DNA of 32,000 bases from Bellilinea caldifistulae (GCF_001306055.1 NZ_LGHJ01000014.1:60001-92000), one strand, 5' to 3'. Numbered from the stretch's first letter, positions 13,722-20,536 are shown. Translations and numbers: made by a program. Notes: generated from the letters alone by a model not told the origin.

Positions 13722-14930
13722 ATGAACAAGAAAACCATCTTACTCACCTCGCTGATCATTCTTCTCACTACTGCGGCATGCGGGTTCACGTTTCAGATTC
13801 CGCGGTTTATGGGCGGTGAAACGCCCGCTCCAACTGCCGAGGTTCGAGTTGAAACTGTACCGGCCAGTCCGCAGGTGACCCTGCCTGCCGTTCCAACCCT
13901 GAGTTCTCCGCCGGATATTTCGGGATTGAGCTACACCGAACGGGATGCCCTGCTGACCGCCCTTTATGAACGGGTTTCACCGGGTGTGGTTTCCCTGCTG
14001 GTCGAAAATGAGCAGGGGGGCAGTACCGGGTCGGGTTTTGTGATTGACCGCCAGGGACATATTGTGACCAATTATCACGTCGTGGAAGATGCAACCGAAG
14101 TGGAAGTGGATTTCCTGTTTGGCTTGAAGGTGCGCGGCAAAGTGATCGGCACCGATCTTGATTCGGACCTGGCCGTTGTCAAAGTGGATGTGCCGGAGGA
14201 CGTACTCGTTCCGCTTCCGCTGGGCGATTCGGACCAGGTCAAAGTCGGGCAGACGGTCATTGCCATTGGCAATCCTTTCCAGTTAAACGGCACGATGACG
14301 CTTGGGATTGTTTCGGCAAAGGGCAGGACGCTGGAATCGCTCCGCCAGGCTGAGAGCGGCTCGTTTTTCACAGCCGGTGATATTATCCAGACCGATGCCG
14401 CCATAAACCCCGGCAATTCCGGGGGGCCGTTGCTGAACCTGAACGGCGAGGTGATCGGCGTCAACCGCGCGATTCGCACCACGGGCACAACCATCACCGG
14501 CGATCCGGTCAACAGCGGGATTGGCTTTTCGATTTCCAGCAACATTGTCCGGCGGGTTGTGCCGGAGTTGATTGCCAACGGCAAGTATGATTACCCCTAC
14601 CTTGGAATCACCAGCCGCAGTAACCTGACCCTGCGGATGATCGAAGAATTGGGTCTGCCGCGCCAGACGGGTGCCTACGTCACCGCAGTGACCCCCGGCA
14701 GCCCGGCCGACCGCGCTGGCTTACGGGGCGGAAGCCGGCCGACCAGTTTCACCGGCTTGCCGGCTGGCGGTGATTTGATCGTCGGGATTGACGGCAAGCC
14801 CGTTTTGACCTTTGACGATTTGCTGAGTTACCTGATTAAGAACAAAAAACCCGGCGACACGGTCACCTTGACCATTGTGCGTGACGGGCAGGAGAAGGAG
14901 GTGAACTTAACTCTCGGAAAACGTCCATAA
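13722..14930 (+). CDS. htrA: HtrA/DegP-family serine protease with one PDZ domain (lipoprotein-like signal)
   Basis: 402 aa. The N-terminal hydrophobic segment ends in LLTTAAC (lipobox-like). The S1C triad contexts are present (TNYHVV, DSDLAVVKV, GNSGGPLLN). A C-terminal PDZ follows (GAYVTAVTPGSPADRAGLRGG...GDLIVGIDGKPV). Confidence 0.9.
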   Translation: MNKKTILLTSLIILLTTAACGFTFQIPRFMGGETPAPTAEVRVETVPASPQVTLPAVPTLSSPPDISGLSYTERDALLTALYERVSPGVVSLLVENEQGGSTGSGFVIDRQGHIVTNYHVVEDATEVEVDFLFGLKVRGKVIGTDLDSDLAVVKVDVPEDVLVPLPLGDSDQVKVGQTVIAIGNPFQLNGTMTLGIVSAKGRTLESLRQAESGSFFTAGDIIQTDAAINPGNSGGPLLNLNGEVIGVNRAIRTTGTTITGDPVNSGIGFSISSNIVRRVVPELIANGKYDYPYLGITSRSNLTLRMIEELGLPRQTGAYVTAVTPGSPADRAGLRGGSRPTSFTGLPAGGDLIVGIDGKPVLTFDDLLSYLIKNKKPGDTVTLTIVRDGQEKEVNLTLGKRP

Positions 14931-14989: not shown

Positions 14990-16090
14990 ATGTTGGCTGA
15001 ACGTGAGCTGCGGGAATTGCTGCAATTCGTATCGCCGGACCCCGTTTTGAGTGTTTATCTCAACACCGATCCCTCGGCTGGCAATTCAGATGCGTACCGG
15101 CTGCGATTGCGCAATTTGTTAAAGGGGGTCAACTTGCCGGATGATGTTGCAGCCATTGAAAATTATTTTCAGTGGGAATACGATTGGAGCGGGCGAGGGG
15201 TGGTATTGTTCTCCTGTGCTCCACAAAAGTTCTTCCGGGTTTATCCATTAGCCATCCCGGTGCCGGATGTCGTTCACGTCAGTGACCGTCCCAGTGTGCG
15301 TGTGCTGGCCGACCTGCTGGACAGTTATGGCGGTTACGGGGTCGTTCTGGTGGACAAGCAAGGCGCCCGCCTGTTTTTCTTCCATCTGGGGGAATTGCGT
15401 GAGCAGGAGGGCGTGGTGGGGGAGGCCGTCAAGCGCGTTAAGCGCGGCGGTGCTTCTACTGTACCGGGAGCATTGGGTGGAATTGCCGGGCGCACCCGTC
15501 ACATGGAAGAAGTGGTCGAACGCAACATGAAAGAGTCGGTGGAATTTGCCGTGGAGTTCTTTGAAGCCAACCGTGTTCGGCGGATTTTGTTGGGCGGCTC
15601 GGATGAGAATGTTGCCCAATTCCGCAGTCTGCTGCCGAAAGCCTGGCAAAGTCTGGTTGTGGGACATTTTCCCATGAATATGAACGCCGGTCATGCCGAA
15701 GTGCTGGCAAAAGCCATGGAAATCGGACAGAAGGCAGAACAACGGCGTGAGGAACTGCTGATTGAGGACTTGATCACCCGCGCTGCAAAAAATAGCGGGG
15801 CGGTAACGGGGCTGGATGCAACCCTCGAAGCCGTCAGCGGCGACCGCGTCAGTACGCTGGTTGTGGCGCAGGGCTATCAGCAGCCAGCCTACCGCTGCAC
15901 CAATTGCGGTTACCTGACCGCCAAAATCATGACAACCTGCCCGGTTTGTGGTGGTGAAGTGCGCGAAATTCCGGACGCGGTGGACTTCGCCATCAGCCGC
16001 ACAATGCGCGCCGGTGGAGATGTGGAAGTCATTCATGCCAGTGACCAATTGATCAAGGCTGGCCAGATTGGGGCATTTCTGCGTTACTGA
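14990..16090 (+). CDS. Bacterial archaeo-eukaryotic release-factor-like protein (eRF1/Pelota/Vms1 superfamily) with zinc-ribbon insert
   Basis: 366 aa with an AGGAGG RBS. The central region aligns by eye to the eRF1 M domain (KRVKRGGASTVPGALGGIAGRTRHMEEVVERNMKESVEFAVEFF versus eRF1 [30 protein letters not shown]). The C-terminal region resembles eRF1/Pelota domain 3 (GAVTGLDATLEAVSGDRVSTLVV ... GQIGAFLRY). A CTNCG..x10..CPVCG zinc ribbon is inserted. Confidence 0.75.
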   Translation: MLAERELRELLQFVSPDPVLSVYLNTDPSAGNSDAYRLRLRNLLKGVNLPDDVAAIENYFQWEYDWSGRGVVLFSCAPQKFFRVYPLAIPVPDVVHVSDRPSVRVLADLLDSYGGYGVVLVDKQGARLFFFHLGELREQEGVVGEAVKRVKRGGASTVPGALGGIAGRTRHMEEVVERNMKESVEFAVEFFEANRVRRILLGGSDENVAQFRSLLPKAWQSLVVGHFPMNMNAGHAEVLAKAMEIGQKAEQRREELLIEDLITRAAKNSGAVTGLDATLEAVSGDRVSTLVVAQGYQQPAYRCTNCGYLTAKIMTTCPVCGGEVREIPDAVDFAISRTMRAGGDVEVIHASDQLIKAGQIGAFLRY

Positions 16091-16117: not shown

Positions 16118-16165
16118 AACATGCTCCCCCGCTGCAAGTCAGACGGGGGAGCATGTTCCATTTTA
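16118..16165. terminator. Bidirectional hairpin terminator between convergent operons
   Basis: Perfect 14-bp stem AACATGCTCCCCCG (16118-16131) / CGGGGGAGCATGTT (16144-16157) with a 12-nt loop. Flanks are T-rich on both strands (CCATTTTA on plus, ATTTAT on minus). Confidence 0.7.
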
Positions 16166-16177
16166 TGGGGGCGAGGT

Positions 16178-16849
16178 TCAGGGTTTTTCCAGCCGGGCAA
16201 GGTTTTCTGCCAGTATTCTCAATTCTTCCAGACTTTTTTCGGGATCGCTGGTAAGGTTTGAACGTACCGTGGCCAGCCGTTCGGTCAGGGCGGTTTCAAT
16301 GTCTTTATCGCCGATCATCGGGATCAGCTTTTTCAGGTTGCTGCTGGCTGAACTCAATTCCTGCCGGGCAGTAAGCAGGTCTTTGGTCACCAATGCCAAA
16401 CGCGCATAGGATACATTGTTTTGCAAGGCGGTCAACGCGGCAGAATACTGGAGGGCTTTCAATTCCTCGGAAGTCTGCTGCAACTCACCCTGAGACTTCT
16501 GCAACTGCTCGCGGGTCTCATTGAGGTCAGCTTCCAATGTGGCAATTTGCTCATTTTGGAGCAGAACCTGCCGGGTCTTTTCTGCCAATTTTTGTTCGGC
16601 GGGCAAATAAAGCAGGAAGTAAGCCAGACCAAAACCGACCAGCAGGGATGCCAGGATGACGACCAGCCAAGCCAGACTCCTTCGAAGCCATGCCGGCGCC
16701 GGTTTTTTTTCGGAAAGGAGTTCGGTTTCTTGTGTTGCTTCTGCCGGTTGAGGCTGAGCTTCTTCCGGTATGGGTCCACTGGTTGGGGTAGGTTCCTCGG
16801 CTTCGGTTGGCGGTGTCACCTCAGGGGCGGTTTCTTTCTCGTTTTCCAT
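16178..16849 (-). CDS. Bitopic membrane coiled-coil protein (acidic Pro/Glu-rich N-terminus, one TM, C-terminal coiled-coil/helical domain)
   Basis: 223 aa. The TM is LAWLVVILASLLVGFGLAYFLLYL, preceded by WLRR. Heptad-like Gln/Glu/Leu-rich sequence follows. The start is 22 nt downstream of the preceding gene, with a GGAGAAG RBS. No family was recognised; it shares motifs with the 16872..17822 product. Confidence 0.7.
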   Translation of the reverse strand: MENEKETAPEVTPPTEAEEPTPTSGPIPEEAQPQPAEATQETELLSEKKPAPAWLRRSLAWLVVILASLLVGFGLAYFLLYLPAEQKLAEKTRQVLLQNEQIATLEADLNETREQLQKSQGELQQTSEELKALQYSAALTALQNNVSYARLALVTKDLLTARQELSSASSNLKKLIPMIGDKDIETALTERLATVRSNLTSDPEKSLEELRILAENLARLEKP

Positions 16850-16871
16850 AATTGAGGCTTCTCCATTTCGT

Positions 16872-17822
16872 TTATGGGGTTGGGGAAGGGGTGGGGGTCA
16901 ATGTTAGGGTGCCGGCGGGGGTTGGGCTGGCGGTCAGTGTGCCGGTGGGGGTCAATTCCAGTGTACCGGCAGGGGTTGGGCTGGCGGTCAGAGCGCCAGT
17001 GGAAGTCATCTGCGGAGTTTCTTCAACCGCCAGGGGCGCAAGTGGTGTTTCTTCCAGCAGGGGTGGCAGCAGAATCAGGTTTTCAGCCGCCTGCAAATCA
17101 CTGGCTGCCATCACTGGCCGGTCGGGCAAGTTGACCAACGCAGAGTCAAGCCTGCCAATCCAGGCAGCCAGTTCTGCTTTTTGCTCCTCGCTGGCCGTTT
17201 GCTGCAATTCAACCAGCAAAAGCCGGGCTGCGCGGATTTCATCACGCGCCAGCCCCAAATTGGCCTGACTGAGGTATACCCGTGCCCGCTGAATCAACAG
17301 GGCGGATTTTAAGACGGTCAGCTGGTATTCCACCTCGTTGAGAAAATCTCCATTTGCAAGGGTCTGTTGATTTTCCTGCGCCAGTTGAAGCGCTTCGGTG
17401 CTGATTTTCCGTACCTCAGCCAGTTTCTTCTCCAGATCGTCCAATCGTTTGAGCTGCAGGGGGTAAGCCTGCTGGGTGGATTGAATCAGTTCAACATCGC
17501 TTTTCAAACCGGCTGATTCATCCTGAAGCAGGATGATCTGGTTACCCATGTCGGTAACCTGCTGCTGGAGTCTCTCCAACCGCTGGCTGAACTGCTCGTT
17601 TTGGCTGGCCTGTTGGGTCTCCAGCAAACTCAGGCGGGCGCTATTCTCCCGTGCCGGCAGGATGGCTTGCTGATAAATCAGGACGAAACCCATGTACAGC
17701 AGCCCGGCCAGGATGACACCTGCCAAAACCACTATGATCAAGCGCAGGACAGCGCGGAAAAACGCCCCTACTGCAATCGAAAATCGCTCACCAGCGGAAA
17801 GCGGGGGTTGTGAGTTACTCAT
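16872..17822 (-). CDS. Bitopic membrane coiled-coil protein with a Thr/Pro-rich repeat tail
   Basis: The start is moved to ATG 17822 (MSNSQPP...), which has AGGAG 6 nt upstream and removes the overlap with the upstream gene. One TM (FFRAVLRLIIVVLAGVILAGLLYMGFVLIY) is followed by a long coiled coil and a C-terminal tail, GALTASPTPAGTLELTPT GTLTASPTPAGTLTLTPT PSPTP. Confidence 0.7.
   Translation of the reverse strand: MSNSQPPLSAGERFSIAVGAFFRAVLRLIIVVLAGVILAGLLYMGFVLIYQQAILPARENSARLSLLETQQASQNEQFSQRLERLQQQVTDMGNQIILLQDESAGLKSDVELIQSTQQAYPLQLKRLDDLEKKLAEVRKISTEALQLAQENQQTLANGDFLNEVEYQLTVLKSALLIQRARVYLSQANLGLARDEIRAARLLLVELQQTASEEQKAELAAWIGRLDSALVNLPDRPVMAASDLQAAENLILLPPLLEETPLAPLAVEETPQMTSTGALTASPTPAGTLELTPTGTLTASPTPAGTLTLTPTPSPTP
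16890..16997 (-). repeat. Two tandem, in-frame 54-bp repeats encoding an 18-aa Thr/Pro-rich unit
   Basis: 16890-16943 and 16944-16997 are near-identical, with a handful of mismatches. They translate to GTLTASPTPAGTLTLTPT and GALTASPTPAGTLELTPT at the C-terminus of the 16872..17822 product. Confidence 0.85.
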
Positions 17823-17835
17823 GGCAATCTCCTGT

Positions 17836-18750
17836 CTAGGGGGTTTCACCCACGCTCAACAAACGGCGTAAGCCGTCCAAAAAGTTTTGAAAAACATTGC
17901 TGCGTTTTTGCAAATCCTCGATCTGGGTTTGGAAAGCGGCGGTTTGTTGCTGCAAGTCAGCCAGTTCACTCTGGGCTGATTTCAATTCATCGCTGAGTGA
18001 CTTTTGGCCTTGCTCCAGCGTGGTCACCCGTCCGCCGAGGGCTTCAATCGTCTGTACCCGGCTGCGTAAATTATCCACATCTCCCTCTAATAAACGGATG
18101 CGGTTATTCAGTGCATCCAGTCTTCCTGAGAGCGCCTGTGCCTCTGCGGCGGGCGCATAGGTGAGGGTTTGATTGATCAGTGCCAGGGTACCCAGGGTGA
18201 AGACCAACGAGAGGATCAGGGTCACGATGGCCACACCGACGGCTGTCCAGAGCAAATCTTCACGTCGTACCCATTTCTCGTCGGTTTTGAGAGGCTGGCC
18301 GACGGGCGGCGGGGTAGAAGCAGTCCGGGATTCAAGCGCCGCAGCCGGTTCAGCAGCAGGCGGGGTGGCCTGTGTGGCTTCTTGTATTTCACCCTCGGCC
18401 TCAGATTGGGCGGGTTCGCTTTCCACTTCGGGCGGTTCTGCTGCAGGGCTTTCCGACAGGGTTGACTCAACCTCCTCTCGCGCCGGAGCGGAAGCCACAG
18501 CCGCCACAGGCTCCGGGAGGGTTGATTCGGGCTCTTCCACTGCGGTGTCGGTAAAATCAATTTTCAGGTAGGGCCGGATCTTTTCCAGCGAAGCTGGCCC
18601 AATTCCGCTCACCCGTGTCAATTCATCCAGCGTGGAAAAGGGTCGGGCCGCCACAATCCGCTCGGCGAGGGCCGGGCCAATCCCCGGTACCGAGGCCAGT
18701 TCTTCCAGTGTGGCACGATTGACCTCAACTGCGCCATTTTGCGTTTCCAT
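17836..18750 (-). CDS. Membrane protein with N-terminal ComEA-type helix-hairpin-helix DNA-binding domain, acidic linker, one TM and C-terminal coiled coil
   Basis: 304 aa with a GGAGGA RBS. Residues ~8-63 (VEVNRATLEELASVPGIGPALAERIVAARPFSTLDELTRVSGIGPASLEKIRPYL) match the ComEA HhH (HHH_3) motif. An acidic Pro/Ala/Glu linker follows. KWVRRED precedes the TM LLWTAVGVAIVTLILSLVFTLGTLALI. A heptad-rich tail ends the protein. Confidence 0.75.
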   Translation of the reverse strand: METQNGAVEVNRATLEELASVPGIGPALAERIVAARPFSTLDELTRVSGIGPASLEKIRPYLKIDFTDTAVEEPESTLPEPVAAVASAPAREEVESTLSESPAAEPPEVESEPAQSEAEGEIQEATQATPPAAEPAAALESRTASTPPPVGQPLKTDEKWVRREDLLWTAVGVAIVTLILSLVFTLGTLALINQTLTYAPAAEAQALSGRLDALNNRIRLLEGDVDNLRSRVQTIEALGGRVTTLEQGQKSLSDELKSAQSELADLQQQTAAFQTQIEDLQKRSNVFQNFLDGLRRLLSVGETP

Positions 18751-18792
18751 ATTTCCTCCTTTTCTTAATAAAGAAAACTTTCAGTCCCGGTA

Positions 18793-19641
18793 TTACTCGC
18801 TTTTGGTTTTACGCGCCGGTAGCGCCGGACGGGCGGGGTAGGGCAAGGGGATGTATTCAACCGAGGGGCGGCGCTGCTGAGTTTGCGGGTACAAATTCAT
18901 CAACTGGTAGATTTCTTCGGGTAGTTCGGTTTTGACATTCAGGCCCAACTGACGGGCTTCGTCCACCGTAATCGGGTAATCGTGCGTCCATTTGCCGGTA
19001 GCCAGTTCTTCGGCCAGAAATTCAGCCTTCTCCGCAGGGTAGTGGGCCGACGCAATTCTGCGAATGGTGGCTTTGACCTGTTCAATGGCTTTTCGGGAGA
19101 TGTCCGCCAGAATCAGGGTTTCATCGTCAATTCGATTACGGTCTTTTTCGGCAACCACTTGCAGAATCGAAGCCGCGGGAAAATTGCCGATTTGCGGGTC
19201 CACCGGGCCGAGCACCGCATTTTCATCCATGAGAATTTCATCGGCAGCCAGCGCAATCATCGTGCCGCCGGACATGGCGTAATGCGGCACCATGACGGTC
19301 ACCTTGCCTTCGTGACGGGCAAGCGCATTGGCAATTTGCTCGGCCGCCAGCACCAGACCGCCGGGGGTATGGAGGATGATGTCAATGGGCAGTTTGGGAT
19401 CGGTCAATTTGATGGCGCGCAAAACCTGTTCCGAGTCCTGAATATCAATATAACGGGCAACCGGGAAACCCAGAAAACTCATACTCTCCTGCCGGTGAAT
19501 GAGGGCGATGACGCGCGAACCGCGTTTGGTTTCGATGGTTCTCATCAAACGCAGCCGGTCTGCTTCGATGATTTTTTGTCGGAACAGCGGCACAAGACTG
19601 GAAATGATAAGAAAGAGCCAGAGAAGATTGAGTAGATCCAT
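18793..19641 (-). CDS. Membrane-anchored SDH-family ClpP-fold serine proteinase
   Basis: 282 aa with a GGAGG RBS. It has an N-terminal TM (LLNLLWLFLIISSLVPLF). The body matches the SDH/ClpP-fold pattern (RVIALIHRQE..., IDIILHTPGGLVLAAEQIANAL, VMVPHYAMSGGTMIALAADEILMDENAVLGPVDPQ). Confidence 0.8.
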   Translation of the reverse strand: MDLLNLLWLFLIISSLVPLFRQKIIEADRLRLMRTIETKRGSRVIALIHRQESMSFLGFPVARYIDIQDSEQVLRAIKLTDPKLPIDIILHTPGGLVLAAEQIANALARHEGKVTVMVPHYAMSGGTMIALAADEILMDENAVLGPVDPQIGNFPAASILQVVAEKDRNRIDDETLILADISRKAIEQVKATIRRIASAHYPAEKAEFLAEELATGKWTHDYPITVDEARQLGLNVKTELPEEIYQLMNLYPQTQQRRPSVEYIPLPYPARPALPARKTKSE

Positions 19642-19674
19642 AAAGCCTCCGTCCAGAATTTCAAAGAGTTGTGG

Positions 19675-20373
19675 TTACCATGGGTAATATTCGTCGCGGT
19701 ACCAGTAGACTCTATTGCGGTTGGAAGCGCTGAAGGGAAAACCCAGCAGCAGCCCAAATAAAAACCCGCCAATGTGAGCCCACCAGGCAATTCCGCCCAT
19801 GCTCATGCCGGCCGGCAGGGCAAGAGAAACCAGACCAGAGAATAACTGGGAAACGAACCAGAATCCGAGGTAGATGACGGCAGGAATGTTGACGAACCAC
19901 GGCAGGAAAAATACCGGTACAAAAGTGATGACCTGAGCGCGCGGGAAGAACAGGAAGTAAGCGCCCAGCACCGCCGCAATTGCCCCGGATGCGCCGATTG
20001 AGGGTATATTCGGTGCGCCCAGCAGCAGCTGCAGCATTCCGGCTGCAACGCCGCCGATGATATAAAACACGAGGAAACGGAACGAACCCATCCGGTCTTC
20101 GACATTGTCCCCGAAAATGAACAAAGTCCACATATTGCTGAGAAAATGCACCCACCCACCATGCAGAAACATGTGAGTGAGGAGCGGATACCACGTCAGG
20201 GGGTTGTCAATTTGAATGCGGGTGCCCAATAAACCGAACGTACGGATGAAACGCTCCAATTGAAAGGGACTCAGATCCAGCTCGATGAAAAAAACAAACG
20301 TGTTTGCCAGAATGATGAGCCAGGTCATGATCGGAAGCGACCTGGAGCGGATGGTGTCTTTGAGTGGAAACAT
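19675..20373 (-). CDS. Rhomboid-family intramembrane serine protease
   Basis: 232 aa with a GGAGGAG RBS. It is polytopic and has rhomboid signatures: HMFLHGGWVHFLSNMWTLFIFG, catalytic GASGAIAAVLGAY and AHIGGFLFGLLLG. Confidence 0.9.
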   Translation of the reverse strand: MFPLKDTIRSRSLPIMTWLIILANTFVFFIELDLSPFQLERFIRTFGLLGTRIQIDNPLTWYPLLTHMFLHGGWVHFLSNMWTLFIFGDNVEDRMGSFRFLVFYIIGGVAAGMLQLLLGAPNIPSIGASGAIAAVLGAYFLFFPRAQVITFVPVFFLPWFVNIPAVIYLGFWFVSQLFSGLVSLALPAGMSMGGIAWWAHIGGFLFGLLLGFPFSASNRNRVYWYRDEYYPW

Positions 20374-20413
20374 ATCTCCTCCGATGTCATCTTTAGTATA
20401 GCCTTATTGGTAA

Positions 20414-20456
20414 AGGATTGCAAACCAGAATTCTCAACCGGGCATGAGGATTGCAA
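20414..20456. promoter_or_regulatory. Direct repeat AGGATTGCAA x2 spaced 33 bp start-to-start (candidate regulator binding sites)
   Basis: Exact 10-mers at 20414-20423 and 20447-20456, in the divergent intergenic region between the rhomboid operon and the 20537 gene. Confidence 0.3.
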
Positions 20457-20500
20457 CAGGTACAGCAGGATCACTTGATCGGACGGCGTAAAAATTTGGC

Positions 20501-20529
20501 TTGTATCCCCTCTCTGCCCGTGATAGACT
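20501..20529 (+). promoter_or_regulatory. Candidate promoter for the 20537 gene, positioned for a leaderless transcript
   Basis: TTGTAT (20501-20506), a 17-nt spacer and TGaTAGACT (extended -10, hexamer at 20524-20529). The ATG at 20537 begins 7 nt after the -10, and there is no Shine-Dalgarno sequence. Confidence 0.45.
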
Positions 20530-20536
20530 TTAAAGT

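Follow-up and report, generated by a model that had tools for sequence, protein, structure and literature searches.

Two membrane serine proteases and three single-pass coiled-coil proteins in a probably composite envelope operon of Bellilinea caldifistulae

Introduction

The rhomboid YqgP of Bacillus subtilis works with FtsH, and GlpG and Rhom7 of Shigella serve in the quality control of orphan membrane proteins (PMC7231995, PMC7232013). Here we describe a cluster of five genes on the minus strand of a 32,000-nucleotide (nt) stretch of Bellilinea caldifistulae DNA (NZ_LGHJ01000014.1:60001-92000, referred to as the window). The open reading frame (ORF) list and the sequence give a rhomboid intramembrane serine protease of 232 amino acids (aa) (gene A, 19675-20373), followed by an SDH-type ClpP-fold serine proteinase of 282 aa (gene B, 18793-19641). 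Three bitopic proteins with a predicted N-in topology come after them: C, with an HhH domain, a transmembrane (TM) helix and a coiled coil (304 aa, 17836-18750), D, with a TM helix, a stalk, a four-helix bundle and a Thr/Pro tail (316 aa, 16872-17822), and E, with an acidic N-terminus, a TM helix, a stalk and a bundle (223 aa, 16178-16849). The original prediction for this locus had proposed that the five genes make up one module in which the proteases act with the coiled-coil proteins, either as substrates or as a scaffold. Comparison with about 1,000 other genomes, many of them metagenome-assembled genomes (MAGs), and in which absence means not found in those searched, leads us to consider the cluster as, on balance, a composite of three layers (A-B, C-D and E) and not a dedicated protease-plus-substrate machine.

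Like YqgP-FtsH and GlpG/Rhom7, the A-B pair combines a rhomboid with a second membrane-anchored degradative protease, and the theme in common is proteostasis. Unlike YqgP-FtsH, the partner B is an ATP-independent ClpP-fold protease of the SDH type encoded in what is probably the same operon, the link between A and B is drawn from gene adjacency across phyla, and A has no extra cytosolic domain. The NfeD (STOPP)/stomatin systems resemble the cluster in that a membrane ClpP-fold serine protease is encoded beside oligomerising membrane proteins; however, the cluster holds neither an SPFH/stomatin partner nor a C-terminal OB-fold NfeD domain, and the conserved partner of B is the rhomboid. SppA and TepA (S49, ClpP-like) belong to the same fold class as B, and with them came the idea of a protease that clears the transmembrane remnants left by another membrane protease. 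Unlike SppA, B is a single-domain protein with a different predicted orientation, and an assignment of B to SppA (S49) was rejected, as it scored 31.9 bits against 155 for TIGR00706 and 21.3 against 24.9 for PF01343.

The bitopic proteins also have described counterparts. C carries a bona fide (HhH)2 domain like that of ComEA (2DUY; Bacillus 8DSS/8DFK). In ComEA, however, the anchor is N-terminal and the HhH domain is C-terminal and extracytoplasmic, whereas in C the HhH domain lies N-terminal to the TM helix and is predicted to be cytoplasmic. After this domain C continues with an acidic linker, the TM helix and a coiled coil predicted to be external, and its gene is coupled to, or fused with, that of a D-family protein. 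In architecture only, C, D and E are like FtsB/FtsL/DivIC and the phage Rz i-spanins, which are N-in bitopic proteins whose external coiled coil pairs with a partner encoded by a neighbouring gene. C, D and E differ from these in being much larger, in having an HhH domain, a four-helix bundle and a Thr/Pro tail, in their accessory distribution and in giving sub-threshold matches only.

Results and Discussion

The two proteases are the part of the cluster with the widest distribution. A matched the rhomboid profile PF01694 with 126.2 bits (cut-off 22.6, E 1.5e-36), and the catalytic motifs, as read in the translation, are intact (G127-A-S129-G, A199-H200-IGG and, in TM2, H71/H76...N80 as HxxxN). 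It is a core-only rhomboid, one of two rhomboids held by the genome. GlpG and rhombosortase were rejected as identities for A, which reached 21-23 bits against equivalog cut-offs of 84-335, and by its profile scores A belongs to a rhomboid subfamily other than these. B matched the equivalog-level model NF047768 with 434.5 bits (cut-off 250) and PF01972 with 394.2 bits (cut-off 31.3, E 3.6e-118). Its nucleophile is Ser124 in the motif PHYAMSGG, which was invariant in 12 aligned sequences, and its sole hydrophobic segment is an N-terminal TM anchor at aa 2-20. Since five Lys/Arg residues were found in the 15 positions after the helix and none before it, the catalytic domain of B is predicted to face the cytoplasm according to the positive-inside rule, the only ground for this orientation. 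A solved structure of a close relative of B was searched for and not found, and in the literature library that was searched no paper was found on the function of PF01972 or on the pairing of a rhomboid with an SDH protease.

The SDH family was above cut-off in 123 of 301 sampled genomes of the class Anaerolineae. In 19 of 20 sampled Anaerolineae families the SDH gene was directly adjoined, on the same strand, by an orthologue of A, and in those 19 families it had no adjoining C, D or E. The comparison was extended across phyla by a scan for the PHYAMSGG pattern with one genome per GTDB species, from which the best 80 of at least 585 SDH loci were taken. A same-strand rhomboid adjoined the SDH gene in 46 of these 80 loci (78 evaluable) in more than 10 phyla, and the spacing between the two genes was mostly -4 to +50 nt. 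The pairs included Ignavibacterium, Schekmanbacteria, Dictyoglomaceae, Binatia, Thermodesulfobacteriota and Neomarinimicrobiota, as well as Methylothermaceae, Cytophagia, Nitrospirota, Deltaproteobacteria and Roseiflexaceae. Across 100 SDH loci the rhomboid was the sole widespread neighbour (64 loci), followed by baeRF (10), E (9), DnaJ-like (8), HtrA (7), Hsp20 (7) and ClpB (3) genes. Judged by this gene order, A-B is an ancient two-gene unit that is retained together in many phyla, and in placing the two proteases together the original prediction was right well beyond the species in which it was made.

The sequence of B is also unusually conserved, with 61-76% identity across bacterial phyla and archaeal MAGs (Syntrophoarchaeum, Methanosarcinales) among the best 80 loci. 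In one congener (G016, L026 3815-4237) A and B have shrunk to a 140-aa remnant ORF in which a piece of the rhomboid (approximately aa 59-102) is joined to the C-terminus of the SDH protease (aa 219-282), while C, D and E are intact alongside; polA is split as well in this MAG, and an assembly problem is possible. Open frames of 580-613 aa that looked like SDH fusions in one family were rejected as such: the added length comes from out-of-frame translation through the rhomboid gene.

DnaJ-like, Hsp20 and ClpB genes recur around SDH loci in several phyla, and together with HtrA they give the surroundings of the SDH gene a proteostasis flavour. A membrane-proteostasis role for A-B fits these recurring heat-shock and quality-control genes. 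By analogy with YqgP-FtsH and GlpG/Rhom7, and with SppA/TepA, the most likely working model is a "clip and clear" function, in which the rhomboid A would cut the TM segments of orphan or damaged membrane proteins and the ATP-independent, membrane-tethered and cytoplasm-facing protease B would then degrade the remnants in or at the membrane.

The similarity of B to the NfeD proteases raises an alternative, also put forward in the original prediction, in which the coiled-coil proteins organise or gate a membrane ClpP-fold protease in the manner of stomatin. B is membrane-anchored, has the ClpP fold and does pass the cut-off of the NfeD1b N-terminal domain (45.9 bits, cut-off 40, E 6.3e-12), although this match overlaps the far stronger SDH_protease match, and three proteins regarded as oligomerising and bitopic lie in the same putative operon. 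However, neither an SPFH/stomatin domain nor an NfeD OB-fold domain was found in A-E, the greater part of C, D and E is predicted to be extracytoplasmic and the SDH domain cytoplasmic, and C, D and E co-occur with B in one lineage only. Because of the missing SPFH protein and of the mismatch in the predicted sides of the membrane, we regard a scaffold role as highly improbable, and this half of the original prediction is not supported by the comparison.

The second layer is formed by C and D. The HhH domain of C (aa 6-62, nt 18565-18735, minus strand) is of the ComEA (HhH)2 type and matched HHH_3 with 64 bits (cut-off 27, E 1.3e-17), beyond which only coiled-coil noise was obtained for this protein. 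Among solved structures the closest to it is that of the Thermus ComEA-related protein 2DUY (E 3.7e-16, aa 7-63 of C), and both GIG hairpins are present. An identity as full-length ComEA was rejected (TIGR01259, 60.8 bits against 152), the HhH domain being N-terminal of the TM helix. The domain is followed by an acidic Glu/Ala/Pro linker of 97 residues with a net charge of -18 (aa 64-160), a TM helix (aa 174-192, nt 18175-18231, minus strand) with Lys/Arg on its N-terminal side, and a predicted external coiled coil of about 110 residues (about aa 196-300). In profile-profile comparison the similarity of C to D and E was confined to the TM and coiled-coil region.

D has a TM helix at aa 24-42, and in the AlphaFold2 (AF2) model (predicted local distance difference test, pLDDT, 72) the TM helix and stalk form one continuous helix (aa 10-150) that is followed by a four-helix bundle (aa 156-251, nt 17070-17357, minus strand) and by a disordered Thr/Pro tail (aa 252-316). 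The tail contains a 54-bp tandem repeat of 2.1 copies (16890-17002), whose copy number differs among close relatives; by alignment the L021 protein is one unit shorter. The profile libraries gave no family above a curated cut-off for D or E, and the D family has no Pfam model. PDB sequence profiles returned generic coiled coils only for both proteins. With Foldseek the best match of the D model in the PDB had an E of 0.09, neither D nor E had a match at E<=0.001, and the best matches of the two were generic four-helix bundles (FliS, SMBP, PsbQ, hemerythrin-like). A HemX-like identity (PF04375; TM helix, coiled coil and helical C-domain) was considered for D and E and rejected, with no genome match at E<=10. 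The original prediction had assigned A to the rhomboids, B to the SDH family of ClpP-fold proteinases and an HhH domain to C, and had described single TM helices with acidic or Thr/Pro-rich regions; these calls agree with the matches to PF01694, PF01972/NF047768 and HHH_3, with the one hydrophobic segment found in each of B, C, D and E, and with the low-complexity regions seen in their sequences. Its view that C, D and E lie outside the confidently known families holds as well, D and E being below all cut-offs and C having only HHH_3 and noise.

Eight of 21 congeners have a full-length homologue of C, and such homologues are also present in several further families within the order. The word-indexed homologue search with D yielded low-complexity candidates and reached close relatives only, and an exhaustive search at E<=1e-10 gave a D family of 722 clusters. 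With the D profile the family was detected in 65 of the 301 Anaerolineae genomes sampled, and in a phylum-wide sample of 301 genomes all 13 D matches fell within this class. In the 48 loci that were compared, 34 held a C-then-D pair on the same strand, many with a 4-nt overlap, and four a fusion of the two in a single protein; D was found without C in seven (two of them close to contig ends) and C without D in three. D was always downstream of C among the pairs, and the fused and divergent forms mostly still start with the HhH domain. The single-chain proteins, in which an HhH domain, a TM helix, a coiled coil and a D-type bundle follow one another, were seen at L045-L047 (approximately 347-479 aa) and L065 (6287-7864, 525 aa), and would be worth choosing for expression or structure prediction.

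From the invariable order of the two genes and from their natural fusions, C and D most likely form a hetero-oligomeric complex that spans the envelope. In such a complex the ComEA-type, DNA-binding HhH domain of C would lie in the cell interior, tethered by a long acidic linker, while outside the cell there would be a coiled-coil stalk, a four-helix bundle cap and a Thr/Pro tail that spans the wall.

Outside the Bellilinea lineage C-D never adjoined A or B in the loci examined, and in 14 genomes that hold both, D and the SDH gene were on different contigs. D was present in five genomes in which the SDH protease was not detected (G117, G157, G221, G056 and G089), and in three of these (G117, G221 and G089) no A-type rhomboid was detected either. 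Conversely, in the congeners G003, G005, G014 and G020 D was not found anywhere in the genome and C was absent along with it, and in G001 A-B-E is retained with C and D absent. This co-presence and co-absence, together with the data on location, indicate that C-D is an optional cassette whose two genes come and go together, and in the genomes sampled it did not occur outside the class Anaerolineae. Some distant families have, upstream of C-D, one more small bitopic gene whose product weakly resembles the D/E bundle (L048 5530-6075, L060 4830-5507 and L063 9143-9928), so that three-gene versions exist with no protease nearby.

The N-in, single-TM architecture with an external coiled coil that C, D and E have in common led us to consider that they are parts of the divisome or elongasome of a filamentous bacterium, built like FtsB/FtsL/DivIC or RodZ, which merely share an operon with the proteases. 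C does show a weak match to DivIC (19.3 bits) and to ZapB, and one public source labels a homologue of D "cell division protein FtsB". However, these matches are below the curated cut-offs (for DivIC 19.3 against 28.9 bits), and many high-quality congeners and most Anaerolineae lack C-D, which is unlike core division parts. Division and cell-wall genes were not recurrent near C-D either: outside Bellilinea no recurrent partner was found among its neighbours, the commonest Pfam family being Usp (9 of 122) and the others transporters and TPR proteins. A role as division parts is thus improbable.

The same patchy distribution, with co-gain, co-loss and variable location, would be expected if C-D were a horizontally shuffled accessory cassette that acts on DNA at the envelope, in uptake, retention or defence, and that landed in the protease operon by chance. 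An intact ComEA-type (HhH)2 domain fits this idea, as does the fast evolution of the genes. Identity to the nearest relative was 75% for C, 82% for D and 75% for E, against 99% for B and 95% for A; C, D and E thus evolve much faster than their neighbours. On the other hand, PADLOC and PHROGs gave no consistent match, JukB appearing in three of 11 E homologues and the remainder being SMC-like coiled-coil noise; no integrase, nuclease or ATPase partner recurs nearby; and the HhH domain is predicted to be cytoplasmic, unlike that of ComEA. We therefore regard the DNA-handling cassette as distinctly unlikely. The individual matches to LmuB, JetC, JukB and Rz-spanin in these collections were rejected as compositional and inconsistent.

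E makes up the third layer. It begins with a disordered acidic Pro/Glu region with a net charge of -10 (aa 1-52), which is followed by a TM helix (aa 55-73); in the AF2 model (pLDDT 77.7, and >90 in the bundle) the TM helix and stalk form one helix (aa 53-154) with a four-helix bundle cap that extends to aa 220. Comparison of D with E by hhalign gave 96.6% probability and an E of 5.8e-10 over 74 columns. By profile comparison the bundles of D and E are homologous and their AF2 models share one build, and E is, on the same grounds, a relative of D with the same stalk-plus-bundle design.

In the class sample the E profile was found in Anaerolineaceae only. E comes directly after A-B in Anaerolinea thermophila, Longilinea and other MAGs, and follows A alone, with B gone, in G003, G005 and G014. 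It persists in G020, where there is no A-type rhomboid, and in G246 a distance of 357 kb separates it from the closest A-like gene. The most constant neighbour of E is the convergent baeRF-HtrA unit, in which the Balon-like baeRF gene (14990-16090, plus strand) and the HtrA gene (13722-14930) both run towards E in the window; the two remain convergent to E across the Anaerolineaceae.

At short range the five genes do keep company. The whole block, in which HtrA-baeRF, E-D-C-B-A and F-PolA stand next to one another, is retained in six Bellilinea genomes, the part from HtrA through A in one genome of another family, and by a scan of named genomes A-B-C-D-E was also found in three more MAGs, one of Levilinea and two of other Anaerolineae or Anaerolineales. 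The synteny implied by the original prediction is therefore real in eight of 21 Bellilinea congeners, in Levilinea and in a few further lineages within the order, but at long range it splits into the three layers.

Such close packing invites the other half of the original prediction, a regulated-proteolysis module in which the rhomboid would cleave the TM segment of C, D and/or E, the SDH protease would degrade or trim the products, and the HhH domain could be released. In its favour are the tight putative operon in which internal terminators were not found, and the predicted cytoplasmic SDH domain, which could reach the stubs inside the cell. C, D and E are moreover single-pass proteins with a conserved Tyr-x(1-5)-Pro/Ala-Ala motif in common, and hhalign gave 94.8% for C against E over the TM and juxtamembrane region. 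E also adjoins the rhomboid in many Anaerolineaceae, even after loss of the SDH gene. The predicted N-in/C-out orientation of C, D and E, however, is opposite to that of the best-studied rhomboid substrates. Some genomes have C-D but lack both the A-type rhomboid and the SDH protease, C-D stands beside the proteases in one lineage only, A-B is conserved in more than 10 phyla without C, D and E, and E persists without B or, as in G020, without the A-type rhomboid. These co-occurrence data contradict the substrate model as an obligate relationship. We thus consider a dedicated protease-plus-substrate module unlikely, while the use of C, D or E as rhomboid substrates in a particular lineage is possible.

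Several points nonetheless weigh against the composite reading. C, D and E are tightly packed behind the proteases in several genera and E adjoins the rhomboid in many Anaerolineaceae, both of which are compatible with a lineage-specific functional link. The Tyr-x(1-5)-Pro/Ala-Ala motif shared by the three proteins adjoins the outer end of the TM helix and may serve all three as a recognition site. About 40% of the SDH loci have no adjoining rhomboid, and A and B may be retained together for a reason other than the division of proteolytic labour that we infer for them. Finally, the constant gene order and the fusions are the sole basis of the C-D complex, and the N-in topology of C, D and E with external coiled coils was predicted from the positive-inside rule only. 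A specific version of the functional link would be that in Bellilinea/Levilinea the rhomboid-SDH pair has been wired to a captured C-D-E set and that cleavage of C by the rhomboid frees the ComEA-type DNA-binding domain, a scenario that we hold to be quite improbable.

The composite reading is compatible with a single transcript in this genome. As the original prediction had it, and as the ORF list and sequence bear out, the five genes are separated by 33 (A/B), 42 (B/C), 13 (C/D) and 22 nt (D/E), and a purine-rich Shine-Dalgarno sequence lies upstream of all five starts (GGAGGAG, GGACGGAGG, AAGGAGGAA, GACAGGAGA and AATGGAGAAG). For D, the ATG at 17822 was taken as the start, supported by homologues with the common N-terminus MSxxxPxLxxGERF; an alternative in-frame GTG at 17849 would give a 14 nt overlap with C. 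A sequence scan of the minus-strand gaps between the five genes found no terminator-like site.

A consensus scan placed a promoter-like site, TTTGCA-N18-TATACT, 5' of the rhomboid gene (20395-20424, minus strand) within the divergent intergenic region 20374-20536. In an alignment of seven Bellilinea genomes the TTGC of the -35 element and the TATACT -10 element are invariant, as is the AGGA inside the Shine-Dalgarno sequence of A (GGAGGAG in the window). At the other end of the cluster lies a hairpin with a 14+3 bp stem and T-rich tails on both strands (16118-16165), with a folding energy of -35.5 kcal/mol (z -6.4) that none of 200 shuffles equalled, and which is common to the convergent units of E (minus) and baeRF (plus). 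Both the flanking promoter region and the strong hairpin had been noted before, and they stand. Because of the short gaps, the missing internal terminator, the conserved promoter and the strong terminal hairpin 3' of E, the five genes probably form one operon in this Bellilinea genome. As the C-D cassette lies between B and E in part of Bellilinea/Levilinea, all five would there probably be transcribed from the conserved rhomboid promoter.

The divergent promoter region also holds a TTGCAA(TCC) repeat element (20414-20456) that is retained in five of the seven Bellilinea genomes. One of its copies overlaps the -35 hexamer of the rhomboid promoter, and the element may thus act as an operator. 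Also conserved is AAGTCTATCA, which reads as the -10 hexamer of the neighbouring gene in reverse complement, AGT-TATCA being invariant in the seven genomes.

Conclusions

The five-gene "module" should not be annotated as a single functional system. Functions have been worked out for few bacterial rhomboids, and these examples suggest a role in the quality control of membrane proteins alongside another protease. The rhomboid subfamily of A, which in more than 10 phyla probably shares an operon with a highly conserved but structurally unsolved ClpP-fold protease, offers a testable partner and hypothesis for many organisms. C and D are delimited as an uncharacterised pair of more than 700 clusters found in Anaerolineae only, with an unusual architecture in which a DNA-binding HhH domain is predicted inside the cell and a coiled-coil stalk and four-helix bundle outside. 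Should the rhomboid cleave C after all in Bellilinea/Levilinea, this would be a case of rhomboid-driven regulated intramembrane proteolysis that links the envelope to the nucleoid.

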